DNA of 64,000 nt from an uncultured Actinomycetes bacterium (GTDB taxonomy: Bacteria > Actinomycetota > Thermoleophilia > UBA2241), in contig CAVPVX010000011.1 in assembly GCA_963709345.1 (NCBI GenBank), positions 18,391 to 82,390 on the forward strand, read 5' to 3'. The notes under the pieces are model-generated. The model saw nothing but the letters and a program-made list of their open reading frames with translations, was not told the DNA's origin and searched no databases. Below are positions 2,565 through 63,785 of this stretch, one piece after another; positions within the stretch are counted from its first letter, which is position 1; each line of letters opens with the position of its first letter. The position numbers were made by a program, and so were the translations under genes.

Positions 2565-2684
2565 CGACGCTCGGGACGCCCGGGACTTCGCATCCGGAAC
2601 GAGTTCGCACTACGCGCACCGTGTTTACAGGAGTAGTGCCTGACGATACTATCTGGCCAACGACTCCGGCACAGAGGAAGGTGC

Positions 2685-3392
2685 GTGGACCGCGATCACG
2701 ATTTGTCGGCCGTCCTGGCGGACGACACGCGCTATCACATTTACAGATCGATCGCGGAGCGACCCGGCGAGGACGTCACCGTGGCCGACGTGGCCGGAGG
2801 ATTCGGCCTGCACCCGAACGTCGCCCGGATGCACTTGGCGAAGCTCGAGCAGGCGGGCTTTCTCGTCACCGGCTTCCGTCGCGCCGCCGGTGGCGGGCGC
2901 CCCGCCAAGCTCTATCGCCTGAGCGAGATGGTCGTCACCTTCGGGTTCCCGCCGCGCCGCTACGACCTGCTCTCGCGACTCGCCATCGACGCCCTGGCTT
3001 CGGGCGGTACGCGAGAGGACGCGCTGCGGGTCTGTCGAGAAGCGGGCGCCGCGGAGGGGAGGCGCGCACTCGCCGGGGAGGCGGGACCGCCTCGCGACGG
3101 ACCCGCGGCGGCGACCACGATCTCCGCCATCGCCGAGGAGCAGGGCCTGCTGCCCGATGTCTCGTGGCGTGACGATTCCCTGAGCGTGGTGGTGCACAAC
3201 TGCGCGTTCAAGGAGTTGTCGGCCGCCGATCCGGATCTCGTCTGCGCCATGCACCGGGCGTACCTCGAGGGGATCCTCGACGTCGTGACCTCGAGGCTCG
3301 GCACGCTGGTCATCGCCTCGGACGGCCGTCGCATCAGTTGTGGAGACGACTGCTGCGAGCTGGTGTGCTCCTTCCGGCCCCGGCGCGCGTGA
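2685..3392 (+). CDS. HTH transcriptional regulator (ArsR/COG2345-like) with a Cys-rich C-terminal domain
   Basis: N-terminal wHTH (TRYHIYRSIAERPGEDVTVADVAGGFGLHPNVARMHLAKLEQAGFLV). C-terminal cysteines: NCAFK, CAMH, SCGDDCCELVC. GTG start after GAGGAAG. Confidence 0.6.
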   Translation: MDRDHDLSAVLADDTRYHIYRSIAERPGEDVTVADVAGGFGLHPNVARMHLAKLEQAGFLVTGFRRAAGGGRPAKLYRLSEMVVTFGFPPRRYDLLSRLAIDALASGGTREDALRVCREAGAAEGRRALAGEAGPPRDGPAAATTISAIAEEQGLLPDVSWRDDSLSVVVHNCAFKELSAADPDLVCAMHRAYLEGILDVVTSRLGTLVIASDGRRISCGDDCCELVCSFRPRRA

Positions 3393-4019: not shown

Positions 4020-5419
4020 TGGACGTCAGGTCGTTCGACACCGGTCTTCTCGAGGCGACGATCGCGAAGGCCCTGCATCGAGGCGGCGACTTCGCCGAGG
4101 TGTACGTGGAAGACCGCGAGAGCCTCGGTCTGCGCCTGGAGGACGGGCGCATCGAGCAGACGAGCGGCGGCCGCGAGCTCGGCGCCGCCGTGCGGCTGCT
4201 CTCCGGGGAGCACACCTACTACGCCTACAGCGACGCCGTCGACGAGGCCGGTCTCCTGGCCGCCGCCGACGCGGTCGCCGCGGCGGTCAGTTCGGGGAAG
4301 CCGGGCAGCTCGGTGGTCCGGCTCGTCGCGGTGCGCGCCGACACCAACCGGCACCCGGTCCTCACGCCTCCGTCCACCGTCGCGATCGCCCGCAAGGCCG
4401 AGCTGGTCCGGGCCGGTGACGAAGCGGCGCGCAGCGCCGGCGCGGAGATAGCCCAGGCCATCGTCGGCTACGGCGACACCCGCCAGCGGGTCCTCATCGC
4501 CAACTCGCTGGGCGACCTCGTCTTCGACGACCGCACGCGCACGCGCTTCTCCGCCCAGGTCGTGGCTCGCCGTGGCGAAGTGATCCAGACCGGTCACGAG
4601 ACGGTCGGCGGCAGTGCCGGATTCGAGCTTCTCGACGAGGCTACGGCGCGCGACGTGGCGGCGACAGCGGCAGAGAAGGCGCGCGCCATGCTGGACTCCA
4701 GGCCCGCACCTGTCGGCGCGATGCCGGTAGTCCTGGCCAACGGCTTCGGAGGCACGCTCTTCCACGAGGCCTGCGGCCACGGGCTCGAGGCCGACGCCAT
4801 CGCCAAGGGCGCGAGCATCTACGAGGGAAAGCTGGGCGAAGTCGTGGCCGCTCCCATCGTCAGTGCGTTCGACGAAGGCTCTCTGCCCAACGGCTGGGGC
4901 TCGCAGGCGTTTGACGACGAGGGCACGCCGACCCAGAAGACGCTGGTCATCGAGGAGGGCCGCCTCACCGGCTATCTGTATGACCGGCTGCGGGCCCGCG
5001 AGGTGGGCGCCGAGCCTACGGGCAACGGCCGCCGGCAGTCCTTCCGCCACGTCCCGATCCCGAGGATGACGACCACCTACATCGCGCCGGGAGACGCGTC
5101 GCCGGACGAGATCATCGCAGCGACGCCTCGAGGCTTCTATGCCAAGAGCCTGGCCGGCGGGCAGGTCGAGCCGGCCAGCGGCAGTTTCGTGTTCGGCGTC
5201 GCCGAGGGCTACCTCATCGAGAACGGCAAGGTGACGACCCCTTTGCGCGGGGCCACGCTCGTCGGCAACGGGATCGACATCCTCATGAAGATCGACATGA
5301 TCGCGAACGACTTCGACGTCAAGACCGGCATCTGCGGCAAGGACGGCCAGGGTGTGCCGGTCGGAACCGGCCAGGCGACCCTGCGCATCGCCGAGATGAC
5401 GGTGGGGGGGACGGGCTGA
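4019..5419 (+). CDS. tldD: metalloprotease TldD
   Basis: Full-length TldD similarity from MDVRSFDTGLLEA (HEACGHGLEADA motif). The N-terminal extension of the 3545 ORF was discounted. Confidence 0.9.
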   Translation: MDVRSFDTGLLEATIAKALHRGGDFAEVYVEDRESLGLRLEDGRIEQTSGGRELGAAVRLLSGEHTYYAYSDAVDEAGLLAAADAVAAAVSSGKPGSSVVRLVAVRADTNRHPVLTPPSTVAIARKAELVRAGDEAARSAGAEIAQAIVGYGDTRQRVLIANSLGDLVFDDRTRTRFSAQVVARRGEVIQTGHETVGGSAGFELLDEATARDVAATAAEKARAMLDSRPAPVGAMPVVLANGFGGTLFHEACGHGLEADAIAKGASIYEGKLGEVVAAPIVSAFDEGSLPNGWGSQAFDDEGTPTQKTLVIEEGRLTGYLYDRLRAREVGAEPTGNGRRQSFRHVPIPRMTTTYIAPGDASPDEIIAATPRGFYAKSLAGGQVEPASGSFVFGVAEGYLIENGKVTTPLRGATLVGNGIDILMKIDMIANDFDVKTGICGKDGQGVPVGTGQATLRIAEMTVGGTG

Positions 5420-7411: not shown

Positions 7412-8044
7412 TCACTGCACCGTGAACGTCCCCACGGCGGCGTCCAGCGTACCGCTGATGGATTCCCACTCCGCCGACGTCGCCTGCGCGGTGATCTGGA
7501 ACTCGTACTGCCCATTGATCAGGAAGTAGGTGACGGCGGTGTTCTCCGTGCCCTCCTCCGTGTAGACATACTTGAAGCCGTAGCCGGGGGTGCCGTTGAT
7601 CTCGGCCTCCTGGAGAGGCTCGACGACCTCGGCCGCCGGCGCGGAACCCATGAGCTGGTCGACGATACCCTGGACCTCCTGTTCCAGCTGCGGGACCTCC
7701 TCGGGCTCGACGGCGCGGGTGAGTTCGTAGACGGAGATCTGGATCACGTTCACGTACCGGTCCGAGATCGTCGGGCCGTCCTTGTCGGCGAAGACGATGC
7801 TGAAGACCGCCTCGCCTCCGGTGCTGGCCGAGGAGACGGGCTCGCCTTCGGTGAACCGGGCATCGTACGTGATGCTGAAGCCGTACTCGGCGTCGGTGTA
7901 GGTCGTCATCTCGTCGCCCGATGAGCCTCCACCCGGCTGGTCGCCGGAGTCACTGCCGCCACCGCCGCTGCAGGCGCCGACGGTGAGCAGCAGGCCCGCC
8001 AGCAGCAGGAGTAGAGCCATGGACCTGCGGATCTCGTGCACTGG
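7412..8044 (-). CDS. secreted lipoprotein, unknown function
   Basis: GTG start after GAGGAGG. Signal peptide VHEIRRSMALLLLLAGLLLTVGAC with a lipobox-like VGAC, then a Gly/Ser-rich linker. Confidence 0.6.
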   Translation of the reverse strand, partial: PVHEIRRSMALLLLLAGLLLTVGACSGGGGSDSGDQPGGGSSGDEMTTYTDAEYGFSITYDARFTEGEPVSSASTGGEAVFSIVFADKDGPTISDRYVNVIQISVYELTRAVEPEEVPQLEQEVQGIVDQLMGSAPAAEVVEPLQEAEINGTPGYGFKYVYTEEGTENTAVTYFLINGQYEFQITAQATSAEWESISGTLDAAVGTFTVQ

Positions 8045-8142
8045 TCCTCCTCGGAGAGAGATGTCGGGGCGCGGTTCAACCGCCGGGTGATGGGTCCTTC
8101 GCACGCTGTCGGCCGCGGGGCGTGCCTTCTCGTGGCCCGGGG

Positions 8143-9618
8143 TCAGACGACCACCCGAAGGGTGCGAAGCGCGCGGTCTTCGGGGCCGTGCACCTTGAGC
8201 CCGGTGGCCGCCGCCTCCAGCAGATAGGCGACGATCTCGGCCGAGATCTCTTCGCCTGGCCCCAGCACCGGGATGCCGGGCGGGTACGGCGTGACCATCT
8301 CGGCGCTCGCGTGACCGGCACACTCCGCCAGCAGCAGGGCGTGTGACGGCGCGAAGAAGGCGTCGCGCGGCGAGAGGATCTGGCGGGTGAAAGCGGGCGT
8401 GTGGGAGAGCAGGCCGGAGCAGGCGGCGGAGCCGCCACCGCCGGCCACCCCTCGAAACCTCGCCGCCAGGTCGCGGAGCGCCGCGACGAGCAGTTCGAGG
8501 TCGGAGCGTGAGTCGCCGTAGGTGACGTTGAGCACGACGTTGAGGGCGTCGGCCGCCTCGACGGCGATGTGGTAGTCGTCGCGCAGGACGGTCTCGAGCT
8601 GATGACCGCTCAGGCAGAGGTCGCAGGCGGAGACCGTGAGCCGTGTGGGGTCGAGCTCGGCGACTCCCTCGCGCTCGAGGATCTCGGCCCCGAGGCAGCG
8701 CAGGCCGGCGATGTTCCCGATCTCGGCGCGCGCCCAGTTCGCCAGCTCGATCGCTCCACGCCACAGCTCGGCGCCTCGCGTCGCCATCTGCTGGCGCGCC
8801 GCGTCGATGCTCGCGTAGATCAGGATCTGCGGACTGGTGCTCTGAGTGAGGTTCACCGTGGTGTCCAGCCGGTCGAGGTTGAGACGCTCGCCGCGAGCCA
8901 TGAGGACAGACGATTGCGTGATGCCGCTGATCAGCTTGTGCGTGCTCACGACCGCGGCGTCGGCGCCGGCCGACATGGCGTCCACAGGCAGTTCCGGGGA
9001 GAACCGCAGGTGCGGGCCCCACGCCTGGTCGGTGACGAAGGGCATCGCGGCGGCCTGGGCGAGGCCGGCGACGGCGGCGAGGTCGGCGCCCAGGCCGTTG
9101 TACGTGGGCGACGTGACGAAGATCGCCTTCGCCTGCGGCGTCGCCTGCAGGGCGCGCAGCGCGTCGCCGGGTCGGATGTTGAGCGGGATGCCCCAGAGCG
9201 GGTCGATCACCGGCTCCATGTACACGGGCACGGCTCCGGAGAAGATCAGGCCGGCGAGCATCGACTTGTGGGCGTTGCGCGGGATGATCACCGTGTCGCC
9301 CGGACCGCACAAGGAGAGGACGAGAGCGTGGATCCCGCTGGTCGAGCCGTTCACGAGGAACCAGCAGCGGTCTCCGCCCCACGCCTCGGCGGCGTAGTCC
9401 TCGGCCAGGCGGATGAGATGCGTGGACTCACGTGTGTCCTCGACACCGCCGGCCATCGCGATGTCGACCGAGAGACACGTGTCGCCGACGAGCTCACGAA
9501 GGCCCGATGGGGCGCCCCTGCCCAGCTTGTGACCGGGTGTGTGGAACGGGGTGTGCCCGGTCGCGCGGTAGCGCAGCGCGGCGTCAAGGTACGGCGTGTC
9601 TTCCTGGTCGTACGGCAC
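8143..9618 (-). CDS. Orn/Lys/Arg decarboxylase-family PLP enzyme (SpeA/YaaO-like)
   Basis: OKR_DC_1-like sequence (HTPGHKLG, STHKLISGITQSSVLM). GTG start after GGGAGG. The upstream part of the 8143..9765 ORF was discounted. Confidence 0.8.
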   Translation of the reverse strand: MPYDQEDTPYLDAALRYRATGHTPFHTPGHKLGRGAPSGLRELVGDTCLSVDIAMAGGVEDTRESTHLIRLAEDYAAEAWGGDRCWFLVNGSTSGIHALVLSLCGPGDTVIIPRNAHKSMLAGLIFSGAVPVYMEPVIDPLWGIPLNIRPGDALRALQATPQAKAIFVTSPTYNGLGADLAAVAGLAQAAAMPFVTDQAWGPHLRFSPELPVDAMSAGADAAVVSTHKLISGITQSSVLMARGERLNLDRLDTTVNLTQSTSPQILIYASIDAARQQMATRGAELWRGAIELANWARAEIGNIAGLRCLGAEILEREGVAELDPTRLTVSACDLCLSGHQLETVLRDDYHIAVEAADALNVVLNVTYGDSRSDLELLVAALRDLAARFRGVAGGGGSAACSGLLSHTPAFTRQILSPRDAFFAPSHALLLAECAGHASAEMVTPYPPGIPVLGPGEEISAEIVAYLLEAAATGLKVHGPEDRALRTLRVVV

Positions 9619-9827
9619 GTGGTCCTCCCGGTGTTCCGCGGGCTCGTCGGGTCGTCCCGGCGAGAGCCCTCCGCGGCAAGCATAGCAAGCCGCGTCACCC
9701 ACCGCCCGCCGCGTCAGCGGCGTGCGCTTGCGAGAGGGATGGGGGTCGTGGACGAAGTGATACACTCAAGCTGTTTTGCAGGGGAAACCACTGCTCCGGA
9801 GGAGTAACGATCAACCTGAAGTCGACG

Positions 9828-11275
9828 GTGAGGGTACGGTTCGCGCCGAGCCCGACGGGCATGCTGCACATCGGTTCGGCGCGCACGGCGCTGTACAACT
9901 ACCTCTTCGCTCGCCATACGGGCGGCGCTCTCGTGCTCCGCGTCGACGACACCGACGCCGCTCGCTCTGAGGCCGCCCTCGAGGCTGCGATCATGGCCGA
10001 TCTGCGCTGGCTGGGGATCGAGTGGGACGAGGGGCCAGACGTGGGAGGTCCCGCCGGTCCGTACCGCCAGCAAGAGCGTCTGGAGCGGTATCGCGTGGCG
10101 GCCGGCGCCCTGCTCGAGAGCGGTCGGGCGTACAGGTGCTTCTGCCCCGAGGAGCGCCTCGAAGAGCTGCGCCGCGAGGCCCTGGCCGCCGGGCGCACGC
10201 CGCGCTACGACCGCCGGTGTCTCGGTCTGCCGCCCGATGAGGCACAGCGCAGGGTGGCCGCCGGGGAGCCGGCGGCGGTCCGCTTCCGGGTGCCCGCGGG
10301 GGAGGTCGTCATCGACGACCTGATCCGCGGGCACGTCACGATAGAGCATGCAGCGCTCAGCGATCCCATCATCGTGCGCTCGGACGGCGTGGCGGGCTAC
10401 AACTTCGCGAGCGTCGTCGACGATCTCGCGATGGGCATCACGCACGTCATCCGCGGCGACGACCATCTCACCAACACGGCGCGCCAGCAGTTGCTGTACG
10501 AGGCGCTCGGCGGGCCGGTGCCGCGCTTCGCGCACCACTCCATGGTCCTCGGGCCGGACGGCGGCAAGCTCAGCAAGCGCCACGGCGCCGCGGCCGTCGG
10601 GGACTACCGCGATCTCGGCTACCTGCCCTCGGCCATCGTGAACTACCTTGCGCTTCTCGGCTGGTCGCACGGCGAGGACGAGGTGCTCGGCATGGAGCGC
10701 CTCGTCGCCGAGTTCGTGCCGGAGAAGCTGTCGGCGAGCCCGGCCATCTTCGATCTTCCCAAGCTCGACTGGCTCGACCACGAGCACATCATGGCGCTCG
10801 CGCCGGAGGAGCACGAGCGCCTCTTCGCCGAGCGGCTGCCGGCGGCGACGCCGCCCAGGCGGCCGCGGCGCTGGCGGCGGCCTTCCAGCCGTCGCTGGTG
10901 CGGTACGGCGAGGCGCCGGCGCTGGCCGCGGCGGTGCTCGAGCCGCCCGCCACGCAGCCCGATCGGGCCGTCGCGTTCGCCGCCGCCGCCGCGCCCCTGG
11001 CGCGGGTGCGCGCGCTTCGCTTGGACGCGCCGGAGTGGCTCACGCCCGCGACCGCCCGCGACCTGCTCGCCGCCTACCGCGCCTGGGGCAAGGATCAAGG
11101 CATCGGCGCGCGCGACCTGCTCATGCCGCTGCGCATCGCCCTGACGGCGACCGAGCACGGTCCCGAACTGCCTTTCGTGCTGGCCGCACTCGCTCGCGAC
11201 GCCACGCTGGCGCGCCTCGACCTCGCCATCGCCGGGAACGCTGCCGATGGGCCCACGACGACTCCGGGAGAATGA
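9828..11275 (+). CDS. gltX: glutamate--tRNA ligase, with an apparent single-base frameshift near 10840-10860
   Basis: N-terminal VRVRFAPSPTGMLHIGSART, KLSKR, WLD motifs in frame 0 (inside the 9432..11144 ORF). The C-terminal anticodon-binding domain continues in the frame of ORF 10898..11275 (LRIALTATEHGPELPFVLAAL). Start could be anywhere within 9810-9828. Confidence 0.8.
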
Positions 11276-12831
11276 TCGTGATCCGCCTTTTCAACTCGCT
11301 GACACAGCAGAAAGAGCCGTTCGAGCCTCGTGACGCCGGCAAGGCGGGCATCTACTGCTGCGGTCCGACCGTGTACAACCTCGTCCACGTCGGCAATGCC
11401 CGGCCGTACGTCACCTTCGCCGTCCTGCGCTCGTGGCTCGCCCGGCGAGGTCTGGAGGCGACGCTGGTGACCAACATCACCGACGTGGACGACAAGATCA
11501 TCGCCAAGGCCAAGGTCGAGGGGCGGGACGCCGCCGCCGTAGCGGAGGAGTTCACGGCCGCCTACGTCGAGGACACGGACCGCCTCGGCATCCCGCGGCC
11601 CGACGTCGAACCGCGCGCCACCGGGACCGTTCCCGAGATCATCGACCTGGTGTGCACCCTTATCAAGGGCGGACACGCGTACGAGGCCGAGGGCAGCGTC
11701 TACTTCCGCGTGCGCAGCTTCGACGGGTACGGCAAGCTCAGCAAGCAGCGCATCGACGACCTCGAGGAGGGCGTCCGTGTGGACAACGAGCCGGGCAAGG
11801 CCGACCCCCTGGATTTCGCCGTCTGGAAGGCCGCGAAGCCGGGCGAGCCGGCCTGGGACAGCCCGTGGGGCATGGGCCGGCCCGGCTGGCACATCGAGTG
11901 CTCGGCCATGGGGTTGCGCTACCTCGGCGTCGGATTCGACGTGCACGGGGGAGGCCGCGATCTCATCTTCCCCCACCACGAGAACGAGATCGCCCAGAGC
12001 GAGGCCGCCGGCCTCCCGTTCGCCAAGGTGTGGATGCACAACGGCATGATCCGCAGTGACGGCGAGAAGATGGCCAAGAGCGTCGGCAACATCTTCCTCC
12101 TGCGTGAGGTCCTCGACCGCTACGAGCCCGCCGTCTTGCTCACCTACTTCCTCACGACGCACTACCGGAGCCCGCTCGAGTTTGGGGCCGAGAAGCTCGA
12201 CGAGGCCAAGGCGGCGCACGCGCGGCTCAGCGACGCGCTCGCGGACATCGACTTCCGTATCGCCAACGCGGCGCGCGCCGTCGCGCGAGGCGAGTGCCCC
12301 GACCTGACCCTCCGCGCCGAGGCGGCGAGGATGGCTTTCGGCGAGCGCATGGACGACGACCTCAACACGGCCGGCGCGCTCGGTGAGTTGTTCGCGCTGA
12401 TCGGCGACATGCACCGCTATCTAACGGCGGTCGACCACGGTGACTCGCCTCTCGACACCGAGGCGCTGGCGACCGTTCGCGACGTGCTGCGCGAGTCGCT
12501 CGGCGCTCTCCTGATCGACGCTCCCGGCCCGGGGGCGGACCTGACCGCCGTCGGCAGCGTCGCCGGCGAGGCCGCCGCCGCGTGTGTCACCGGAGAGGTC
12601 GCGCTGCTCCCGGCCGCGCGGCTCGCCGGGGAAGGCCGTTGGGATGACGTCGCGCTGGTCTACGCCGACCGTCTCGGCTGCGCCGACGCGTCGTACGCCT
12701 GCGTGCTGCGCGACCACTATCGCGCGCAGAAGCAGTGGGGCGAGGCCGACAGGCTGCGCGACGAGATCCAGGGCGCCGGGTTCGAGGTGCGCGACACGCC
12801 CCAAGGCACGCAGGTGGTCAGGAAGCCTTGA
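11272..12831 (+). CDS. cysS: cysteine--tRNA ligase
   Basis: CGPTVYNLVHVGNARPY, KMAKSVGN, WHIECS. ATGA overlap with the gltX stop. Confidence 0.9.
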   Translation: MIVIRLFNSLTQQKEPFEPRDAGKAGIYCCGPTVYNLVHVGNARPYVTFAVLRSWLARRGLEATLVTNITDVDDKIIAKAKVEGRDAAAVAEEFTAAYVEDTDRLGIPRPDVEPRATGTVPEIIDLVCTLIKGGHAYEAEGSVYFRVRSFDGYGKLSKQRIDDLEEGVRVDNEPGKADPLDFAVWKAAKPGEPAWDSPWGMGRPGWHIECSAMGLRYLGVGFDVHGGGRDLIFPHHENEIAQSEAAGLPFAKVWMHNGMIRSDGEKMAKSVGNIFLLREVLDRYEPAVLLTYFLTTHYRSPLEFGAEKLDEAKAAHARLSDALADIDFRIANAARAVARGECPDLTLRAEAARMAFGERMDDDLNTAGALGELFALIGDMHRYLTAVDHGDSPLDTEALATVRDVLRESLGALLIDAPGPGADLTAVGSVAGEAAAACVTGEVALLPAARLAGEGRWDDVALVYADRLGCADASYACVLRDHYRAQKQWGEADRLRDEIQGAGFEVRDTPQGTQVVRKP

Positions 12832-18631: not shown

Positions 18632-20044
18632 TCACTCCGAGCCGGCGCTCGGGGTCGTGCCGCGAGGGCCTGGGTTCGGCCACATGCGCTTCAGGGCCTG
18701 GATGAAAGCCTTGTTGCGCTCGTCCTTGCGCCAGTTGTGGATGATCACCATGCCCCACCAGTGGAACATGAGCTGCTTGGTGAACTTGAGCGCGAAGATG
18801 TAGCGCAGCCAAGTGCGGATCGAGTAGAAGCGCATGTACCCGCGCAGATCCTCCATCTGCAGCTCGTAGGGGGTCATGAGCTTCGGTTCGAACACGACGT
18901 GGTGCGCGTCGTAGAGGTGCCAGCGCTTGTCGAAGATGCGCCCCGCGGCGTCGAGGTTGTCGTATTGCGGTGTGCCCGGCAGCGGCGTGAGGATGTTCAG
19001 CATCACCGTGTCGATGTGGTTCTTGATCGCGAAGGTCACCGTGTCGCGGACCGTCTGCACGTCGTCGGTGTCGGCGCCGAGCACGAACATGCCGTGACTG
19101 CGGATGTCGTAGTCGTGAAGCTTGCGGATGCCCTCGACGATGTCTTCGACGGTCTGCGCCTTCTCGAAGCTGTCGAGCGTCGCCTGGCTGACCGACTCGA
19201 GGCCGAGGTAGACGAGCTCGCAGCCCGAGTCCCTCATGAGCTCGAGCAGTTCCTCGTCGCGCGTCACGTCGGTGCGCACCTGGGCGGACCAGGGGATGAC
19301 GAGGTCTTCGTCGATCATCATGCGCAGGAGCTTCTTGAGGCGCTTCTTGTCGGCGGCCATGTTGTCGTCGTAGAAGAAGATGCGTCCGGGCCGCTTGTCC
19401 TTGATCTCGGCGATCACGCTCTCGGCGCTGCGAAAGCGGTACTTGCGGCCGAACATCGCCGTCACCGAGCAGAAGTTGCAGGCGAACGGGCAGCCCCAGC
19501 TTGTCATGATCGGGATGGTGGTCAGCCTTTCGCCGCCGACCAGCAGCTTGAGGTCGGGGAAGGGGAGCTCGTCGAGGTCGTCGAGCCGCTCACGGAGTTG
19601 GTTGTGAACGGCTTTGCCGTCACGGCGGAACGAGAGGCCGGCGATGGTGTCCAACTCGCGGTCGCCGGCGAGCGCCTCGATGAGCTCCAGCATGAGCTGC
19701 TCGCCGCCCTCGCCGCGGGCCACGTAGTCGACGTGCTCGAGGGCCTCGTCGGCCATGAACGTGACGTGGGAGCCTCCGATGACGACGGGGATGCCGCGTG
19801 CGCGCAGGTTGTCGGCGTCCTCGTAGGCGGTGGTCGTCGTCGACGTCGTGCTCGAGAGGCCGACCAGATCCGAGGTGTTCACGTCGTCCCAATCGATCGG
19901 CGCCATCTGGGGGTTGTAGACGAGCACATCGTGCCCGTGCGCCTTGAGAGTGGCGGCGATGATCGGCAGGCCGAGGCGCGGCAGAAGGACCTTGGCGTAG
20001 ACGTGCATCCCTGGAGGTTCGGGCTCGATGAGGCGGATCTTCAT
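18632..20044 (-). CDS. B12-binding domain radical SAM enzyme (canonical CxxxCxxC)
   Basis: N-terminal B12-binding-like domain. Radical SAM motif SWGCPFACNFCS. ATG after AAGGAG. Confidence 0.85.
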   Translation of the reverse strand: MKIRLIEPEPPGMHVYAKVLLPRLGLPIIAATLKAHGHDVLVYNPQMAPIDWDDVNTSDLVGLSSTTSTTTTAYEDADNLRARGIPVVIGGSHVTFMADEALEHVDYVARGEGGEQLMLELIEALAGDRELDTIAGLSFRRDGKAVHNQLRERLDDLDELPFPDLKLLVGGERLTTIPIMTSWGCPFACNFCSVTAMFGRKYRFRSAESVIAEIKDKRPGRIFFYDDNMAADKKRLKKLLRMMIDEDLVIPWSAQVRTDVTRDEELLELMRDSGCELVYLGLESVSQATLDSFEKAQTVEDIVEGIRKLHDYDIRSHGMFVLGADTDDVQTVRDTVTFAIKNHIDTVMLNILTPLPGTPQYDNLDAAGRIFDKRWHLYDAHHVVFEPKLMTPYELQMEDLRGYMRFYSIRTWLRYIFALKFTKQLMFHWWGMVIIHNWRKDERNKAFIQALKRMWPNPGPRGTTPSAGSE

Positions 20045-20201
20045 GGCGCTCCTTGAAACGAGGTCTCGGTCGTCGGCCTCTGCGGCGCGGCATGTCGCCA
20101 CGGCACGAAGGACACGGACGCTCAAGTCGAGATGATAGTCGCTGGTCGCGACCCTGAAAAGACTGGGGCCTGGGCGGCGATGGCGGCGCCCATCGGCAGT
20201 C

Positions 20202-23057: not shown

Positions 23058-23495
23058 GTGAAGAGACTCATCCCCATCCTGCTGCTGGTCGCGCTGGCGC
23101 TGGCCGTGGTCCCGGTGGCTGCGTCCGCGGGCAACGGCAAGGCGAAGGCGCACGGCAAGGCCAAGTTCAACCTGGTCGGCACGCTGACGGCGGTCGACGA
23201 AGCTGCCGGCGCCGTGACCATCAAGATCAAGGCGGGGACCAGGACCGTCAAGAAGTACCGCGGCGACGAGCTGCCAATGACGGTCGCTTCTCATGCACGC
23301 ATCCGGCTGGTGACCGTCGACGGGTGCGTGACGGCTACGCTGGCGGATCTCGCGGCTCTGCCGTCGGGAGCCAGGCTCAAGGCGCGCGGGCGCATCGACC
23401 GCAGCGATCCTTCGGCGCCCTCATTCGTGATCACGTTTCTTCAGGCGAAGGCCCCGTCTCCCGCGTCGGAGCCCGACCCGGCCCCTGTCAAGTAG
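23058..23495 (+). CDS. secreted hypothetical protein (signal peptide)
   Basis: GTG after AAGGAGG. MKRLIPILLLVALALAVVPVAASAG signal peptide. Confidence 0.6.
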   Translation: MKRLIPILLLVALALAVVPVAASAGNGKAKAHGKAKFNLVGTLTAVDEAAGAVTIKIKAGTRTVKKYRGDELPMTVASHARIRLVTVDGCVTATLADLAALPSGARLKARGRIDRSDPSAPSFVITFLQAKAPSPASEPDPAPVK

Positions 23496-23605
23496 GAGCG
23501 AAGTCGGACGGCGGGCGCGCGACGCCCGCCCTGGAGCCGGGCCTGGAGGCCTTCGACGGGTTCCTGCGGGAGCGGCACCGGCCCCCGCCCCTCCTCCCGA
23601 CCCCC

Positions 23606-23665
23606 GTACTTGCCGCCGCTCCCACCGCCTCGATACTTGGTGCAAGTAACGCGCCGATCTACTTG
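23606..23665. promoter_or_regulatory. three TACTTG direct repeats, the middle one part of a TACTTG-gtg-CAAGTA palindrome
   Basis: Repeats at ~23606, 23634 and 23660 (spacing 28 and 26 nt), 110-170 nt upstream of the corrinoid protein gene. Confidence 0.3.
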
Positions 23666-23772
23666 CTGGACGGCTCCGAGCGGCGGCGCGTATCGTTGCT
23701 CAGCATGAGCCATGCGCCCCGGGCGCTCTTGCGGACGCCCGCGGCGACCAAGCGTCGTAAGGAGGATCCCCA

Positions 23773-24420
23773 GTGTCCGACGAGCTCTACGCACAGATGA
23801 AGCAGACCGTGATCGACGGCGAGGCCGAGGACGCCGCGCGCCTCGCCCAGGAGGGCCTCGACGCCGGCCTGCCCGCCGCCGACATCCTCGACCAGGGCTT
23901 CGTCAAGGGCATCGAGGAGGTCGGCGACCTCTTCGGCCAAGGGCGAGTTCTTCCTCCCCGAGCTCGTCCAGGGCGCCGAGGCGATGAAGGCCGCCGTGGC
24001 CGTCCTGCAGCCGGCCCTCGACGCCTCCGGCGGCGGCCGCAAGGCGCTCGGCATCGCCGTCGCCGGCACCGTCGCCGGCGACATCCACGAGATCGGCAAG
24101 ACGATCGTCTGTTCCATGCTCAGCGCCGCCGGCTTCACGGTCACCGACGTCGGCTGCGACGTACCGGTCGAGACTTCGTTGCCGCGGTCAAGGACTCAGG
24201 CGCCGACCTGCTCCTGCTCTCCGCCCTGCTGACCACGACGATGCCCAACCAGCAGAAGACGATCGAGGCGCTCAAGGAGGCCGGCCTGCGCGACGGCGTC
24301 AAGGTGATGATCGGCGGCGCCCCGACGACCCGCGCCTGGGCCGACGAGATCGGCGCCGACGGCTACGCCGAGGACGCGATCGAGGCCGTGGCCACCGCCA
24401 AGACGATCCTCGGGGTCTGA
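23773..24420 (+). CDS. methyltransferase-type corrinoid (B12-binding) protein, MtbC/MttC/MtaC family, interrupted by two compensating frameshifts
   Basis: N-terminal cap domain (DQGFVKGIEEVGDLFGQG), then the middle part in the +1 frame (ORF 23984: GTVAGDIHEIGKTIV, DxHxxG), returning to frame at FVAAVKDSGADLLLLSALLTTTMP ... GGAPTT. There is an extra G in the ggg at ~23941 and a missing T near 24176. Confidence 0.8.
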   Translation: MSDELYAQMKQTVIDGEAEDAARLAQEGLDAGLPAADILDQGFVKGIEEVGDLFGQGRVLPPRARPGRRGDEGRRGRPAAGPRRLRRRPQGARHRRRRHRRRRHPRDRQDDRLFHAQRRRLHGHRRRLRRTGRDFVAAVKDSGADLLLLSALLTTTMPNQQKTIEALKEAGLRDGVKVMIGGAPTTRAWADEIGADGYAEDAIEAVATAKTILGV

Positions 24421-24540
24421 GGCAGCGCCAGCAGGCCACACGAAGCACGACCGCGAGGGGCGGCGGCGCCAAGGCGCCGCCGCCCCTCGCGCGTACGAGG
24501 CGCGTGTGAACCGGGCTCGCATTCGGTAGAGTGCACCTCG

Positions 24541-25739
24541 ATGGCCGCCGATCACAGCGCATACTTCGAAGAGGTCGAGGCGCGTTTCGCCGCGCGCCCA
24601 CGACCTCGACCTCGGGCTCGAGGAGGAGTTCCAGGTCCTCGACCCCGAGACTCCTGGAGCTCACATTCGGGTTTCGAGGCCCTTCACGACGCCGCGCCTC
24701 CGCGACTGCGCGAGCGCGTCGCCGGTGAACTCCTGCGCTCCGAGATCGAGGTGTCGACGCCGCGCACGCTCCACTTCGGGCAGGCGGCGAAGCAGACTCC
24801 TGCTCAATCGCGCCGAGCTGTTTCCGCTGGCGGACCGGGTGGGCTTCGCTCTGGGCGCCGGCGGCACGCATCCCTTCTCGGCCTGGAAGGACCAGGAGAT
24901 CATCGACACGCCGCACTACCGTCTTGTCGAGGAGCGGCTCAAGTACGTCGCCTGGCGCAACAACACGTGGGCGGCGCATGTGCACGTGGGGGTGCGCGGC
25001 TGCGACCGCGCCGTCGCCGTGTGCGACGCCCTGCGGACGTATCTGCCGCACCTGCTGGCGCTCTCGGCCAACTCCCCCTTCATCGAGGACGTGTGGACCG
25101 AGCTGCACTCGGTCGCGCACCCAGACCTTCCTGCGCATGTTCCCGCGCTGCGGCATCCCGGACGTCTTCGGCTCGTGGGCCGAGCACCGGCGCTTCTACG
25201 AGGAACTCGTCGACACCGACTGCATCCAGGAGTTCACGCAGATCTGGTGGGCTGTGCGACCGCACCATCGCTTCGGCACCGTCGAGGTGCGCATCTGCGA
25301 CGCCCAGAACGAGGCCTGGCAGAGTCTCGCGATCTCGTCGCTGACGGTCGGGCTCGTCGCGCACCTCGCGCGCGTCTACGATGAGGGTCATGCCGCTGCC
25401 CTACCTCGAGACGCGCTACATCGAAGAGAACCTCTGGCGCGCGATCCGCTACGGTCTCGACGGCAAGCTCGTCGATTGGGAGGCGAAAGCGGAGGCTTCC
25501 GGCGGCCGACGCCGTCCGGCGCCTCGTGGAGCTCGCGGCTCCCTTTGCCGACGCGCATCGGGCTGACGCCGCATCTCGGCCAGGTGGAGCGCATGCTCCG
25601 GGAGGGCAACGGGGCGCAACAGCAGAGTAGGGCTTACATTGAGGGTGAGAGTCTGCGCGAGGTCTTCGCGGGGACGTCGGGGCGGAGGCTCGCTCCGAGC
25701 TCACTCGAGCCGGCGACCGAGACGCAGGGAGGATCGTGA
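24541..25739 (+). pseudogene. ybdK: carboxylate-amine ligase YbdK (GCS2 family) broken by at least 7 single-base frameshifts
   Basis: Conserved YbdK segments found successively in frames 1,2,0,1,2,0,1,0: LGLEEEFQVLDPET, LELTFGFEALHD, GGTHPFSAWKDQEI, AHVHVGVRGCDRAVAV, LALSANSPF, FPRCGIPDVFGSW, WWAVRPHHRFGTVEVRICDAQ, MPLPYLETRYIEENLWRAIRYGLDG. Confidence 0.75.
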
Positions 25740-25764
25740 TGATGACACGACCCGACCCGAGGGC

Positions 25765-26361
25765 ATGACCGACGACGGAGCGCGCCAAGGCCGCCCTCGA
25801 ACAGCTCAAGAGCATCCGCGCCTTCGATCTCGCCTACGAGATGATGATCGGTCTCGTCAGCTTCGGCTATCAGAAGATGGGACTGACCGACGAGACCGCG
25901 CCCGTGCGCGACCTGGACGACGCACGGCTCTCCATCGAGCTGTTGCGCGCGACTCTGGACGTGTCGAGGCGTGAGCACGGCGCCGAGTCGCACGCGGCGA
26001 CCTGCGCGCGACGCTCGCGCAGATGCAGCTGAGCTACGCCCGCGCGGTACAGCTCGCGGGCGCTCCGAGCCGGCCGGCGTCGCACGCGCCGCCGGCGGAG
26101 GATGTGTCGCGGGCAGAGGCCTCGGCGGAGGACGGGCCGTCCCAGGTCGCCGATCCGGATGTGGCGCCGGAGGCGGGGCCCGCGGGCGGCGAGCCGGCGG
26201 CGAAGAAGTCCGCGGTCAGGAAGCCCACCGCGAAGAGGCCCGCCGCCGACAAGGCCGCCTCCGATGGGACGGCCGCGAAGCAGCGCGCGTCCAAGACCGC
26301 TCCGAAGGGTGCGGCGCCGAAGAAGAAGAAGAGGACGGACGCGGCGCCGGACGAGGGCTGA
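25765..26361 (+). CDS. DUF1844 protein with a Lys/Ala/Pro-rich histone-like C-terminal tail; two apparent frameshifts
   Basis: ERAKAALEQLKSIRAFDLAYEMMIGLVSFGYQKMGL (DUF1844 core) in one frame. It continues as LRATLAQMQLSYARAVQ ... AAKKSAVRKPTAKRPAADKAAS ... KKKKR in another frame. Confidence 0.55.
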
Positions 26362-26370
26362 GGCCGCGGG

Positions 26371-27051
26371 TCAGGCGCCGGCGAGCGCCCAGAAACGCGC
26401 CTCTTCGAGCGTCTCGCCGGGCTCGACGACGAGGAACTCCTCGTCGTGGGGCCCGGCGACGAGCTTCTCGAGGAAGCGCAGCGACCCGGACAGGTACTCA
26501 AGCGGCAGATCGTAGAAGGCGCTCACGGTCTCCAGGTACTCGCGTTTGTCGTCGAGGCCGGGAACGCCGGGCGTCTCGATGACGGCCACGCGCGTGTAAT
26601 TCTCCATGATGAGACGCGCGACGTAGGCGGCCTTCTCCTCGCCGTACTTGGGCACGATCTTCAGGTACTCCTTGTACGGGTCGTCGATGAAGTCGACCCA
26701 GCCGCGGGTGTAGTAGTAGGTGCCCGGCTGGCCGCCGTGCTCCTCGAGGTAGCGGGCGCGAGAGCCGAGCAGCAGCGAGATGCAGTCGTCCACGGCGGGC
26801 AGGACGAGCCGGTGCGATCGCGCCTCGAGGCCCACGGTGCCGTTGCTGCAGCGGCCGCAACAGAGCATGATGTCGCGCTCGCCCGGCGTGCCGTCGATGC
26901 GCTCCTGGAGTGCGCTACGCAGCTTGTCCGGGTAGTCGTGCAGGGCGCCGTCGACGAACTCCACCTCGAGCCCGCGCCCGTCGCGTGCGAGCACGCTCTC
27001 GATCTCGTTGCGGAGGACCTCGCAGCTGACGATCTTCGGTGGCGCATCCAT
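26371..27051 (-). CDS. DUF1638 protein (family commonly next to corrinoid methyltransferase genes)
   Basis: 226 aa from MDAPPKIVSCEVLRNEIE. The upstream part of the 26371..27729 ORF was discounted. Confidence 0.7.
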   Translation of the reverse strand: MDAPPKIVSCEVLRNEIESVLARDGRGLEVEFVDGALHDYPDKLRSALQERIDGTPGERDIMLCCGRCSNGTVGLEARSHRLVLPAVDDCISLLLGSRARYLEEHGGQPGTYYYTRGWVDFIDDPYKEYLKIVPKYGEEKAAYVARLIMENYTRVAVIETPGVPGLDDKREYLETVSAFYDLPLEYLSGSLRFLEKLVAGPHDEEFLVVEPGETLEEARFWALAGA

Positions 27052-27241
27052 CGGGCCATGGTAACAGGACCATCCGGGTCCTGTCGCCTCGCACGCGCCG
27101 GGCGCTCGGGAGCGCTGCCCGGACGGCGCGCAGGCGTGTGCCTCGTCTTGGCCTGCGGTAGCATGGAGGGCGCGTCTTGCGAAGCACTGCCGGCGCGGGC
27201 AGCGGGAACGGCCCGCCCGCGCCTGACCCGAGGAGGACTCC

Positions 27242-28096
27242 TTGAGCGTGAACAAGCTGCTTGTCGCCGGCGCCGGCCAGATGGGCGCCGGCATCGTCCA
27301 GGTTTCGGCTGTGGCCGGGCTCGACGTGGTGATGATCGACGTCGCCGAGGAGTTCATCGCCCGGGGCATGGCCGGCATCGAGAAGGGCCTCGGCCGGATG
27401 GTCGACAAGGGACGCATGGAGGCCGCCGCCCGCGACGCCGCACTGGCGCGGATCACCACGAGCACCGACATGGCGGCCGGCGCCGACGCCGATCTCTTCG
27501 TCGAAGCGGCGCCGGAGGCCATGGAGATCAAGCAAGGCCTCTTCGAGGCGGCTTCTCGGATCCTGCGCCCGGACGCCGTCATTGCCACCAACACCTCGAG
27601 CCTCTCGGTCAGCGCCCTCGCCGCCTTCGTCTCCGCTCCGGAGCGCTTCGTCGGCATCCACTTCTTCAACCCGGTGCCGGTCATGGCGCTGGTCGAGGTG
27701 ATCCGCGGCGAGAAGACGAGCGACGCCACGCTCGCCGTGGCCCGTGCCTACGCGGAGGCGGTCGGCAAGACCGCGATCGCGGTCAGCGACTCACCCGGCT
27801 TCGTGGTCAACCGCATCCTCTTCCCGATGATCAACGAGGCCGCGAGCGCCTACGCCGAAGGAGTCGCGAGCGCCGAGGACATCGATACCGGCATGAAGCT
27901 CGGCACCAACTGGCCGATGGGCCCGCTGGCGCTCGCCGACCTCGTCGGTCTCGACACGACCAAGGCGGTGCTGGAGACCTTCGAGCGCGAGCTCGACGAC
28001 GCCAAGTACCATCCGGCCGCGATCCTCGGTGAGCTGGTCGCCGCCGGCAAGCTCGGGCGCAAGAGCGGCGCCGGCTTCTTCGACTACGGGAAGTGA
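27242..28096 (+). CDS. hbd: 3-hydroxybutyryl-CoA dehydrogenase
   Basis: TTG after GAGGAGGA. Rossmann GAGQMGAGIVQV. 3HCDH N- and C-terminal domain similarity. Confidence 0.9.
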   Translation: MSVNKLLVAGAGQMGAGIVQVSAVAGLDVVMIDVAEEFIARGMAGIEKGLGRMVDKGRMEAAARDAALARITTSTDMAAGADADLFVEAAPEAMEIKQGLFEAASRILRPDAVIATNTSSLSVSALAAFVSAPERFVGIHFFNPVPVMALVEVIRGEKTSDATLAVARAYAEAVGKTAIAVSDSPGFVVNRILFPMINEAASAYAEGVASAEDIDTGMKLGTNWPMGPLALADLVGLDTTKAVLETFERELDDAKYHPAAILGELVAAGKLGRKSGAGFFDYGK

Positions 28097-28103
28097 CGGC
28101 GCC

Positions 28104-28631
28104 GTGACTCCGCCGCGCCAAGGCTACGTCCAGCTCTACACCGGAGACGGCAAGGGAAAGACGACGGCCGCCCTCGGCCTCGTCGTGCGGGCGCTCGGCC
28201 AGGGTCTGCGGCCGGCCGTGCTGCAGTTCATGAAGTCCGATCCCACCTGGGGCGAGATCGTCACGCTCAAACGGCTGGAGGTGCCGGTTCGCCAGTGCGG
28301 GCTCGACCACTGGGTCTTCAAGGGCGAGGCCTCGGAAGAGGACCTCGCCGCCGCCGCCGCCGGCTTCGACCAGGCGCTCGCTCTCGTCGACAGTGGCGAG
28401 TACGACGTCGTCATCCTCGACGAGCTCGTGACGGCCGTCTTCTTCGAGCTCGTTCCCGTCGAGCGTGTGCTCGCCATGATCGCCGCGAAGCCGCCGGCCG
28501 TCGAGCTCGTGATCACCGGCCGCCGTGCCCCGGAGGAACTGCTCGCGGCGGCCGATCTGGTCACCGAGATGCGCCCCGTCAAGCACTACTTCGATGCTGG
28601 GGTCAAGGCTCGCCCGGGCATCGAGTACTAG
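28104..28631 (+). CDS. cobO: cob(I)yrinic acid a,c-diamide adenosyltransferase
   Basis: GYVQLYTGDGKGKTTAALG P-loop. CobA/CobO/BtuR family. The upstream part of the 28029 ORF was discounted. Confidence 0.85.
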   Translation: MTPPRQGYVQLYTGDGKGKTTAALGLVVRALGQGLRPAVLQFMKSDPTWGEIVTLKRLEVPVRQCGLDHWVFKGEASEEDLAAAAAGFDQALALVDSGEYDVVILDELVTAVFFELVPVERVLAMIAAKPPAVELVITGRRAPEELLAAADLVTEMRPVKHYFDAGVKARPGIEY

Positions 28632-44559: not shown

Positions 44560-45470
44560 CGTGAGCGAGCCGCGGAGCGTGGGTGACGCTCTCCGCGCGG
44601 CCGCGCGGCGGCTGCGCGCGAGCGGTTCGCGTTCGCCGCGCCTCGACGCCGAGCTCCTGCTTGCCGCGGCGATCGGCGTGTCCCGCTCGGAGCTGTTCCG
44701 CAGGCCGGAGCGTCTGCTGACCACGGCCGAAGCGGAGCGCTTCGAGGTGTGCCTGCGACGCCGCGAGGCGTTCGAACCGGTCGCGTACATCCGCGGCGTG
44801 CGCGCTTTTCGCGCCGTCGAGCTCGAGGTCACGCCCGACGTGCTGATCCCGCGCCCCGAGACAGAGACGCTCGTGGAGGTAGCGCTCGAGGTGCTCGCGG
44901 AGGAGCCGGCGGCACGTGACGACCTCGTCGTCCTGCCCGAGCCTCGCGTCCTGGACGTCGGCACGGGCTCCGGCTGTGTCGCTCTGGCGCTGGCCGCCGA
45001 GAACCCCTTCGTCCACGTCGACGCCGGCGACGTCAGCGAGGCGGCTCTCGCGGTGGCGCGGCGCAATGCCGAGCGCCTCGGCCTCGAGCGCCGCGTCGAC
45101 TTCCTGCCGTCTGACCTGTTCGCCGGCCTGCCGGAGGGACGGCGCTACGACCTCATCGTCAGCAACCCGCCGTACATCGCCGAGGCCGAGTACGCGGAGC
45201 TCGAGCCGAACGTCCGTGACTACGAGCCGCGGCTCGCGCTCGTCGCCGGCGCAGACGGGCTTGACGTCTACCGGCGACTGGTCGCGCAGGCCGCCGGGTG
45301 GCTGCGCCGCGGCGGCACGCTCGCCGTCGAGGTCGGGATCGGCCAGGCTGCCGCCGTGCGGGAGTTCCTGACGGCGGCCGGCTCGGTACGGACCCGCCCG
45401 CGAACGGACCGACCTGAGCGGCGTGCCCCGGGTCGTCTGGGCGCGCCGGCGCGACGGCGGCGGATTCTGA
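44560..45470 (+). CDS. prmC: release-factor glutamine N5-methyltransferase PrmC/HemK, with an apparent single-base frameshift near 45380-45400
   Basis: NPPY motif and a SAM-MTase fold. The C-terminal ERTDLSGVPRVVWARRRDGGGF* is only in the +1 frame, whose TGA overlaps the recO ATG. Confidence 0.8.
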
Positions 45471-46210
45471 TGGCGCGGGTCGAGAAGGCCCGGGCCGTCG
45501 TGTTGAGCTCGCGTCCGCTGGGAGAGGCCGACCGCATCGTACGCCTCTTCACGCGCGAGCTCGGGCGGGTCGACGCCGTCGTCAAGGGCGTGCGCAAGAC
45601 GACGTCGCGCTGGGGTGGCCGCCTCGAGCCCTTCAACGTGTGCGACCTGCTGCTGCACCCGGGCCGGTCGCTGTACACGGTCACGCAAGCCCAGCTCGTC
45701 GACGTCTTCTCGCGTCTGCGCGACGATCGCGAGGCGCTGACGGCGGCGGCGGTGGTCTGCGAGGCCGCCGCCGGTCTCACTCCGGAGCACGAACCCGAGG
45801 AGCGCGTGTTCGCACTGCTGCGCAACACGTTGCGGGAGCTCGACCGCGGCCTGTGCGGCCCGGCCACCCAGGCGCCTCTCGTGCTCGGCGCGCTGCTCAA
45901 GCTGCTGTACGAGGCCGGCTACCTGCCCGTGCTGGACCAGTGCGCCGCCTGCGGCGCCGGGGACAGAGCGCTTGGCTTCTCCTCCGCCAGGGGAGGGCTC
46001 GTGTGCGGCCGGTGCCTCGGCGACGCTCTGCCGATCACCCCGGAGGCCGTCGCCGTCCTTCGCTCGGCCGTCGGGGGGTCGCTCGCCGAGCTGCGCGCGG
46101 AGCCTCCGTCGGAGGCCGCCGCCGAGGCTCTGCGCGATGTGCACGCCCTCTACGCGTACCACACGGGCTCGCAGCTGCGGGCGCTGCGTTTCGCGGGCAG
46201 AGCCGGCTGA
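45470..46210 (+). CDS. recO: DNA repair protein RecO
   Basis: ARVEKARAVVLSSRPLGEADRIVRLFTRELGRV N-terminus. CxxC ... CxxC zinc motif (CAACG ... CGRC). Confidence 0.8.
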   Translation: MARVEKARAVVLSSRPLGEADRIVRLFTRELGRVDAVVKGVRKTTSRWGGRLEPFNVCDLLLHPGRSLYTVTQAQLVDVFSRLRDDREALTAAAVVCEAAAGLTPEHEPEERVFALLRNTLRELDRGLCGPATQAPLVLGALLKLLYEAGYLPVLDQCAACGAGDRALGFSSARGGLVCGRCLGDALPITPEAVAVLRSAVGGSLAELRAEPPSEAAAEALRDVHALYAYHTGSQLRALRFAGRAG

Positions 46211-57697: not shown

Positions 57698-57732
57698 GCA
57701 GGGGCCGGCGCCGCCGGCGCTCAGGAGGCGAC

Positions 57733-59182
57733 ATGCAGGAGACGCGGGTGCTGCTCGTGTTCCCCGGCTCGCTGTACGGCGGCCCGTGGGCCGACGGGCC
57801 GCGGGTCAAGCCCGAGCTCGTGCAGCTCTTCACCGAGGTACGCCGGGCCGGCTTCTCCGCCGGCGTGCTCGATCTCGAGACGGAGCTCGGCAACCCGGCT
57901 GACGAGGCGGCGCGGGAGTCCTTTCTCCAGCTGGCCGGCGGATTGCTCGCGGAGCGCCGCGCCGACCTCGTTGTGATCTCGTGCTGGTCCGCCCTGCAGT
58001 ACACCGCCGCGGTGGCGGTGGCCGGGCGCGTGCGCGAGCATCACCCCGACGCGGTGATCGCCGTCGAGGGCCACCACGTCTCGGTGCGCCCCGACGACTT
58101 CAACGACCCGGGCGCGCCCTTCGACTGGCTCGTCGCCGGCGAGGCGGAGAGCGCCGTCGTCACGATCGCCCGCGCGGTCGCCGCCGGAGAGCGCGAGACC
58201 GGCGCCTGCCACTCGCTGGAGGGCACGCTGCTGCCGCTCGACGCCGCGCACCTGCCCGACTACGCGGCGTACCCGTATGCGGACGAGGGGCTACCGGAGC
58301 TCGGCCTTTTCCTCAGCCGCGGCTGCCCTTACAACGCGCCGGCGTGTCTGCTGCGCCCCGGGGGCGGCGGGTGGCACGCCTACCCGCCGGACGTGGCCGT
58401 GCGGGCTATTGCCCGCGTCGCCGCGCTCCGCCCGGCGCGCATCCTCGTCCTGGACCCGGCCTTCGGGTACGAGGCCGGCTGGCGCCGGGCCGTGCTCGAG
58501 CGCCTGGCGGCGGCCGATCGGCGCGACCTCGCGATCGGCATCGCCGGCCGCCCGGACGCGCTGGCGCGCCTCGACGTCGACAAGATCTACGCGGCGCGCC
58601 TCGGCCTGCGGCTCGAGGTGGGGGCGCTCTCGCGCCGCCTGCTCTCGCGAACGGGGCAGGCCCCGAACGCCGAGAAGGCCGTCGCGCACACGCTGGACCT
58701 GCTCGAGTATCTGAACGCCAAAGGCGTGGTGACCGTCGCAGGGTTCACCTTCAACCAGCCCGGCGAGACGCGTGAGACGGCGGAGGAGACGCTCGACGCT
58801 CTTGAGCGCTTCGTCGCCGGCGTACCGAACACCTCGGTGAGCCTGCAGGCGCAGCCGTGGGCCTTTCTGCCAGCCGGGGAGGAGGACGCCGACGTGGAGG
58901 CGCCGGCTTCGCGGTACGGCACGCGGATCGAGCATGCGGAGTGGTGGAAGGAGCGCCGGGACTCGGTACGCGGCCGCGACGGCCGTGGTCGCCGGCCACG
59001 AGCTGGCCGGTCTGGCGCCCGGCGACGAGAGCTACTGGCGGCCGCGGTTCGAGGAGCTTCGTGAGCGGCTCGCGGCCAAGCTCACAGCCGACGCCCGCCG
59101 TGGCCTGCGCAGTCACGAGACCGTCGGGTCGGAGGCGTACGGGGTGCCGCATGGCTGGCTGCTGGAGCCTCGCTGGCACTGA
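57733..59182 (+). CDS. B12-binding-domain protein related to radical SAM enzymes but with a degenerate CX6C motif; apparent frameshift near 58960-58970
   Basis: ATG after AGGAGG. N-terminal B12-binding-like domain. [13 protein letters not shown] replaces CxxxCxxC. The C-terminus continues in the ORF 58934..59182 frame. Confidence 0.55.
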
Positions 59183-59282: not shown

Positions 59283-59357
<75 letters not shown>

Positions 59358-61473: not shown

Positions 61474-61566
61474 ATGCGACACAGATATGCCACGCTCTTC
61501 ATGATCGCGACGACGGTTCTCACGTTGCTGGCGGCGGTGCTCTTCGCAGCGCTGCGGAGCATCTGA
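61474..61566 (+). CDS. candidate 30-aa hydrophobic micro-protein (not in the ORF table)
   Basis: ATG 4-5 nt after GGAGA. MRHRYATLFMIATTVLTLLAAVLFAALRSI forms a single TM helix. GC3 about 83%. Confidence 0.3.
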   Translation: MRHRYATLFMIATTVLTLLAAVLFAALRSI

Positions 61567-61793
61567 GCGTCGCAGATGCCGACCGCCGCCTCGTCTTTCT
61601 GCCCATCGGCGGCGACCGCCTGAGCGTGTCGCTCGCGCGCTTCACGGGGGCGCGGGTGGAGGACCGCCGCCGCGCCGCCGCCGCCGCGCAGGATCCGTGG
61701 CTCCTGGGCGGTCGGCGGCACGCTCACCGTCGAGTGGGAGACGTCGAGCGCGAACCCGGTGTGTTCCTGACCACCTGCTCCGGCGTCACGCCC

Positions 61794-62085: not shown

Positions 62086-62089
62086 CCGC

Positions 62090-62506: not shown

Positions 62507-62510
62507 GTGC
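62463..62510 (-). terminator. perfect 20 bp inverted-repeat hairpin ~50 nt downstream of amt
   Basis: cacttgaacgggcggggtcg-ctcccttt-cgaccccgcccgttcaagtg. Confidence 0.5.
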
Positions 62511-62555
62511 GGCTGCTGAGCGCCGGCCGCGTCTCGCGGCCGGCGCCCAGCCTGC

Positions 62556-63785
<1,230 letters not shown>

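Follow-up and report, generated by a model that had tools for sequence, protein, structure and literature searches.

The 64-kb stretch of DNA analyzed here (the window) has a G+C content of 69.7% and contains a gene for a corrinoid protein whose conserved parts lie in two different reading frames. The question raised by this locus is whether the organism carries a broken gene, makes the protein by changing frame during translation, or has an ordinary gene that is wrongly recorded. An AGGAGG ribosome-binding site, read directly from the sequence (23760..23765, forward strand), lies 7 nt upstream of a GTG start, from which the open reading frame (23773-24420) continues for 215 codons without a stop in frame 1.

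Reading frames, indel sites and identity of the corrinoid protein

The sequence-only reading of this region had described three segments in frames 1, 2 and 1. This layout is borne out by the translation and, in agreement with it, by a segmentation based on codon-position G+C (GC3), which was run over the whole window and uses no homology information (frame 1 at 23774-23939, frame 2 at 23940-24172 and frame 1 at 24173-24417). All three segments are on the forward strand. The first (23773..23938, frame 1) encodes amino acids 1-55, in the cap domain, and is also supported by a match to PF02607 and by alignment. The second (23940..24174), for which frame 2 is the true coding frame, encodes amino acids 56-133 and is covered by the PF02310 match of the repaired protein. 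It holds the DxHxxG motif as GDIHEIG (24080-24097, frame 2), and the claim that this motif is conserved but out of frame proved correct, as it is invariant in 15 sequences. The third segment (24175..24420, frame 1) encodes amino acids 134-215 plus the TGA stop, as seen in the translation, GC3 segmentation and alignment. The 235 bases at 23940-24174 fall in the wrong frame of the ORF. Read in frame 1, residues 57-134 are Arg-rich nonsense that is still open; read in frame 2, the segment translates to GEFFLPELVQGAEAMKAAV...AGTVAGDIHEIGKTIV...CDVPVE. An open frame 1 across this segment is expected at 70% GC, since 71% of the 78-codon stretches in that off-frame of the window's clean genes are free of stop codons.

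We placed the indels by DNA alignment with nine orthologues and paralogues of the gene, and with L161, a short-read contig that is the closest syntenic relative found (88.7% DNA identity over 8.7 kb, with the same gene order). One extra C and one missing C are the sole frame differences between the gene and its orthologues. The extra C is at 23937..23939, where the window reads GGCCAAG and all orthologues read GGCAAG or GGTAAG; within the context TTCGG[C]CAAGGGC, the relatives have GGC or GGT followed by AAG (G-K). At the second site (24174..24175) the window has GAGACTTC and the orthologues have GAGACCTTC, with the missing base in the context GTCGAGA[C]CTTC, where the relatives have ACC TTC (T-F). 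It had been proposed that a G was gained at about 23941 and a T lost at about 24176. These changes also restore the frame, but put Q and an ambiguous residue at the positions of the family's K and T, and the alignments give instead an extra C at 23937-23939 and a missing C between 24174 and 24175. Repair of both sites produces a 215-aa protein that retains all 133 sites that are invariant in 12 orthologues.

The repaired protein has two full-length domains, the B12-binding cap PF02607 (residues 7-78, 70.8 bits) and the B12-binding domain PF02310 (residues 95-206, 97.5 bits). Among solved structures, the best match is 7xcn_M (E 7.5e-59), a trimethylamine methyltransferase corrinoid protein; the repaired protein aligns end to end with it and with 1y80 and 3ezx. 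Intact metagenome proteins of 215-216 aa share 92-94% identity with it over 100% of the length, and 136 of the 215 columns do not vary among 15 aligned sequences, those of GDIHEIG among them. The profile search proposed for this protein places it, narrowly, among the methyltransferase cognate corrinoid proteins (TIGR02370; it scores 219.1 bits, and the cutoff is 215.3). It falls below the cutoffs of the MtbC equivalog NF041607 (215.6 against 350), the MtgC equivalog NF047995 (210.1 against 310) and NF047996 (186.9 against 370). Thus, of the suggestion that this is an MtbC/MttC-type protein, the superfamily and subfamily assignment holds (PF02607, PF02310, TIGR02370), but the scores do not reach the MtbC and MtgC equivalogs.

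In methyltransferase corrinoid carriers, cobalamin bears a methyl group that is shuttled between two methyltransferases, one of which is substrate-specific. The repaired gene is, as predicted from its sequence, an ordinary, functional-type carrier of this kind, with a cap helix bundle, a Rossmann B12-binding domain and a His-on DxHxxG ligand. With other TIGR02370 proteins (MtmC, MtbC, MttC and MtgC type) it shares the PF02607 cap, the PF02310 Rossmann domain, a length of about 215 aa and the His ligand in DxHxxG. The gene in the window differs from these in that its reading frame is broken twice as written, and in that there is no partner methyltransferase within 64 kb. Once repaired, it is an ordinary member of a highly conserved Thermoleophilia corrinoid-protein family.

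A cluster of indels across three adjacent genes

The two frameshifts had been considered unusual as a +1 and -1 pair that keeps both termini in frame. This view is not supported, as the pair belongs to a patch of about 13 indels that also hits two unrelated genes. About 11 of these are in the two genes that follow the corrinoid gene. The first encodes a GCS2-family carboxylate-amine ligase (24541..25745, forward strand) whose frame changes repeatedly and whose repaired protein matches all of PF04107 (1-291/291). It has eight window-specific one-base insertions relative to six orthologues and to L161 (near 24590, 24652-56, 24666-72, 24796, 25113-15, 25388-90, 25494-96 and 25554-57). The second is a conserved hypothetical gene (25766..26361, forward strand) with a Lys/Ala/Pro-rich tail and two to three one-base indels, including a +1 near 25775-78 and a frame change at 25988-25998 that brings the frame back; it regains its frame, as the corrinoid gene does. 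A 'DUF1844-like' label for this gene was rejected, as there is no Pfam match.

All 13 frameshifting indels relative to L161 lie within 23937-25994 (about 2.06 kb). They fall within 1938 of the 8288 coding bases compared, and the probability of this under uniform placement is about 6e-9. Over the 6.3 kb of coding sequence that comes next, all indels relative to L161 within genes have lengths divisible by three, and the others are in spacers or gene ends. Orthologous proteins of L012 and L030 map in a single frame to the other genes in the 13.7-34.4 kb region, and Pfam matches over the rest of the window are mostly full-length. The corrinoid, GCS2 and hypothetical genes are all intact in L161, and are kept intact and in synteny across relatives.

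Just past the corrinoid stop codon we identified a perfect G+C-rich hairpin (24443..24480, forward strand; fold of -57.9 kcal/mol, z = -7.55) that is a putative terminator without a T tract. The hairpin came from folding; a scan of 23400-24650 for sigma-70 promoters and T-tract terminators found nothing. At the Rfam gathering threshold, no cobalamin riboswitch or other RNA was detected near the corrinoid gene, and the only match is a tRNA at 59283. Given the strong hairpin past its stop codon, the corrinoid gene may form a separate transcription unit, and the patch looks as if it crosses a transcription-unit boundary. The damage tracks position, not function: it affects three genes of unrelated function, all of which are intact and in this order in relatives.

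Outside the patch, one other conserved gene is broken. gltX (9780..11275, forward strand) is split by an isolated one-base frame change at a junction near 10838-10850, within CTGCCGGCGGCGAC. Up to about 10841 the catalytic domain (PF00749) is encoded in frame 3; past that point, frame 2 encodes the anticodon-binding domain (PF19269). gltX is normally essential, so that its splitting fits an error in the record. ARAGORN places a doubtful tRNA with a four-base anticodon inside this gene (10864-10955).

Consensus error, decay and recoding as explanations

It is very probable that the corrinoid gene is real and ordinary, and that its frameshifts are local consensus errors in a low-quality patch. 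Simple sequencing error, a possibility already raised for this gene, is the best explanation, and repair gives one frame of 215 aa. The two corrinoid frameshifts would be the first two of about 13 single-base consensus errors spread over about 2.06 kb (23937-25994) of an otherwise clean contig. The likely cause would be a locally under-covered or unpolished stretch in a long-read assembly of a high-GC, Thermoleophilia-like genome. Most probably, the real organism has an unbroken gene at this locus, for a 215-aa protein with exactly the sequence of the repaired translation.

A link to sequencing technology is seen across the gene family. We found 177 copies of the corrinoid gene family in 160 loci; five of these copies have matches in more than one frame. 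The five frameshifted copies are among 53 from Nanopore-only MFD MAGs, compared to none among 124 copies from elsewhere (Fisher p = 0.002). Two further MFD loci are damaged: L043 has three one-base insertions in its corrinoid copy, visible only in the DNA alignment, and the third gene of L012 is shifted. The shifted segment of the window's corrinoid gene was spanned by tblastn as one low-identity HSP, and so tblastn frame counts alone under-detect short compensated shifts. The indels in other MFD MAGs, in the corrinoid or neighboring hypothetical gene, are at positions unlike those of the window. One-base indels of their own are seen in L043 (10001-10648), L044 (10001-10634), L052 (6032-6569 and 10001-10647), L075, L078 and L012 (about 12200-12300).

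Nanopore errors are typically deletions in homopolymers, scattered along the sequence. In the patch, most inserted bases do not extend homopolymers, unlike the textbook R10 error. The MFD MAGs were assembled from Nanopore data only, with Flye and a single Medaka polishing round; according to their authors, those of lower coverage contain Nanopore-associated errors (PMC12313526). Indels are a known weak point of Nanopore-only assemblies (PMC9262707). The window resembles the errors described for long-read-only assemblies in having single-base indels that break conserved genes without a substitution signal (PMC9262707, PMC12313526), but differs from the Nanopore pattern in that the errors are concentrated in 2 kb and consist mainly of insertions outside homopolymers. 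The indels, their clustering, their bias towards insertions and the lack of a relaxed-selection signal are observed directly; the technical cause, although the most likely one, is inferred. An exact-pattern scan of metagenome contigs across the second corrinoid site, with either form allowed, recovered no same-species contig. A protein-based contig scan recovered only relatives of at most 93% identity, and none of these was flagged as frameshifted by a multi-frame tblastn screen.

If the indels were true mutations, the corrinoid, GCS2 and hypothetical genes would be very recent pseudogenes, broken by one-base indels too recently for substitutions to have accumulated. Frameshifts clustered in adjacent genes are what a locus without function might show, and there are probable true gene fragments elsewhere in the window. 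We nevertheless consider this reading, the main rival, unlikely, as the substitutions tell against it. Changes unique to the window at sites that are invariant in orthologues number 0 of 133 in the corrinoid gene, 1 of 105 in GCS2 and 1 of 19 in the hypothetical gene; the same measure is 0-2.9% in most intact neighbors with at least six orthologues. A relative-rate test took L161 as the sister and used L012, L030 and L025 as outgroups. Between the window branch and the L161 branch, amino-acid changes are divided 21:25 in the three patch genes, compared to 30:35 in five flanking genes that are intact (Fisher p = 1.0). By codon position, corrinoid substitutions number 0, 1 and 6 on both the window and sister branches. 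Those of GCS2 number 5, 5 and 18 on the window branch and 4, 2 and 19 on the sister branch, when columns within 5 nt of an indel are left out and more outgroups are used. Extra first- and second-position changes that appeared in a first count of GCS2 vanished once the indel-adjacent columns were removed and more outgroups were included. There is no signal of relaxed selection in the repaired patch genes, and substitutions are mainly at third positions. Thirteen neutral indels in 2 kb should be accompanied by many substitutions spread evenly over codon positions; none of this is seen. Without an excess of amino-acid or first- and second-position changes, decay would need a mutation burst consisting only of indels. 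The spectrum of the indels also does not fit, as relative to L161 there are 12 insertions and one deletion, all of 1 nt (binomial p = 0.0017 for at least 12 of 13 at equal odds), but deletions outnumber insertions in every prokaryotic group surveyed (PMC2817411). Bacterial pseudogene decay is expected to bring relaxed constraint along with more deletions of mixed sizes, and the patch genes show neither. Further points against pseudogenization are that the three genes are functionally unrelated, that the hairpin suggests a transcription unit for the corrinoid gene separate from that of the next two genes, that all three are intact in synteny across relatives, and that gltX is affected too. An insertion-biased local burst, for example error-prone synthesis over a repair tract of about 2 kb, could have knocked out three adjacent conserved genes very recently in this Thermoleophilia lineage and left no substitution footprint. 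We regard such an event as highly improbable; were it true, the corrinoid gene would survive as an open, non-functional chimeric ORF.

Two other readings take the sequence as correct and the gene as expressed. Programmed recoding, in which the complete corrinoid protein would be made by two ribosomal shifts (+1 near 23938, -1 near 24174), could draw on the exact restoration of the frame by the two shifts and on a shifted ORF that is free of stops, but the latter is expected at this GC content (71%, as above). Neither shift occurs in any orthologue or paralogue; 172 of the 177 copies are in a single frame and the exceptions shift elsewhere. Neither site (GGC CAA GGG and GAG ACT TCG) has a slippery heptamer or a stall codon, and similar lesions occur in the neighboring genes, with eight in a row in GCS2. 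Recoding is effectively excluded. The frame-1 ORF could alternatively be the true gene, encoding a divergent protein with an Arg-rich middle, as its 215 codons include no stop and its product still gives matches to both terminal domains. This is refuted by the GC3 periodicity, which changes frame exactly at the two sites, and by the frame-2 segment, which carries DxHxxG and is about 95% identical to the matching segment in hundreds of proteins. In addition, half of each Pfam domain is lost in frame 1 (PF02310 scores 54.7 bits and PF02607 41.9 bits, with about half of each domain kept).

The main value of the local-error explanation is in quality control. At face value, the record would be taken for a pseudogene or a strange protein rich in Arg, and three more genes (that of the GCS2 ligase, the one after it and gltX) would count as broken. 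The capacity of the genome for B12-dependent methyl transfer, and its completeness, would be understated.

Partner genes, neighborhood and other irregularities

The 64-kb window lacks genes for MttB, MtbB or MtmB (PF06253, MTTB) and for MtaB or MtaA-type proteins. No pyrrolysine tRNA was identified in it, and the only credible tRNA is a tRNA-Asn. Outside the window, a paralogue of the corrinoid gene (88% identity, in L162 at 8001-11679) lies directly upstream of two MTTB-family genes that are full-length (494 and 482 aa) and have no amber break. A TetR gene is encoded upstream of this paralogue on the opposite strand. The corrinoid family does have partners in the MttB superfamily, namely enzymes that lack an amber break. 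The link to pyrrolysine drawn by the sequence-only reading did not hold up in the window, which has neither the tRNA nor MTTB genes, or at this one paralogous locus. Several relatives hold two to three copies of the corrinoid protein (85-92% identity), as in L021, L026 and L030, which are from one MAG.

The gene order is PiT, PhoU-like, small secreted protein, corrinoid protein, GCS2, hypothetical, DUF1638 (minus strand), Hbd, CobO adenosyltransferase, LysA, Hom and PFK, and is common to the window, L012, L030, L025, L044, L020 and L161. The DUF1638 gene (26371..27066, reverse strand; PF07796 1-161/161) and the ATP:corrinoid adenosyltransferase gene (CobA/CobO/BtuR; 27897..28631, forward strand; PF02572 2-172/172) are both intact, and their counterparts in L161 are at 2623-3303 and 4359-4886. 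DUF1638 genes are genetically tied to the stand-alone B12-binding protein of the split methionine synthase in Phaeobacter, and are co-induced with MtgC in Ruegeria (PMC5764234, PMC12478193). The window resembles the split methionine synthase and glycine betaine demethylase (MtgC) systems of Phaeobacter inhibens and Ruegeria pomeroyi in having a stand-alone protein with cap and B12-binding domains and DUF1638 close by. It also has the corrinoid adenosyltransferase gene nearby, an arrangement kept in relatives. It differs in that DUF1638 is on the opposite strand, two genes away (2 kb downstream) and in a separate operon. Methyltransferase pieces that bind homocysteine or pterin were not seen in the 64-kb window, nor was a RamA-like gene. 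Judged by its gene neighborhood, the window copy could be a shared corrinoid carrier. A conserved site near DUF1638 and the corrinoid adenosyltransferase, with no methyltransferase partner alongside, is a mildly useful biological lead.

Proteins with B12-binding domains are also encoded at 18632-20200 (reverse strand) and 57700-59064 (forward strand); one is a B12-binding radical SAM enzyme and the other a weak sub-threshold match. Directly downstream of a full-length gene for an ammonium transporter (62556-63938), the region at 61500-62650 (reverse strand) encodes a C-terminal fragment of about 110 aa of a second Amt. Next comes a C-terminal fragment resembling a CoA-transferase, in which the frame changes several times. 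These fragments look like real gene remnants, possibly with further indels. With such apparent true remnants at 61.5-62.65 kb, the genome is not free of real pseudogenes. A single stop-free ORF of 532 codons (44612-46210, forward strand) encodes PrmC (PrmC_N and MTS) followed by RecO_N and RecO_C; a genuine fusion, the loss of a stop codon or one more error in the sequence could account for this.
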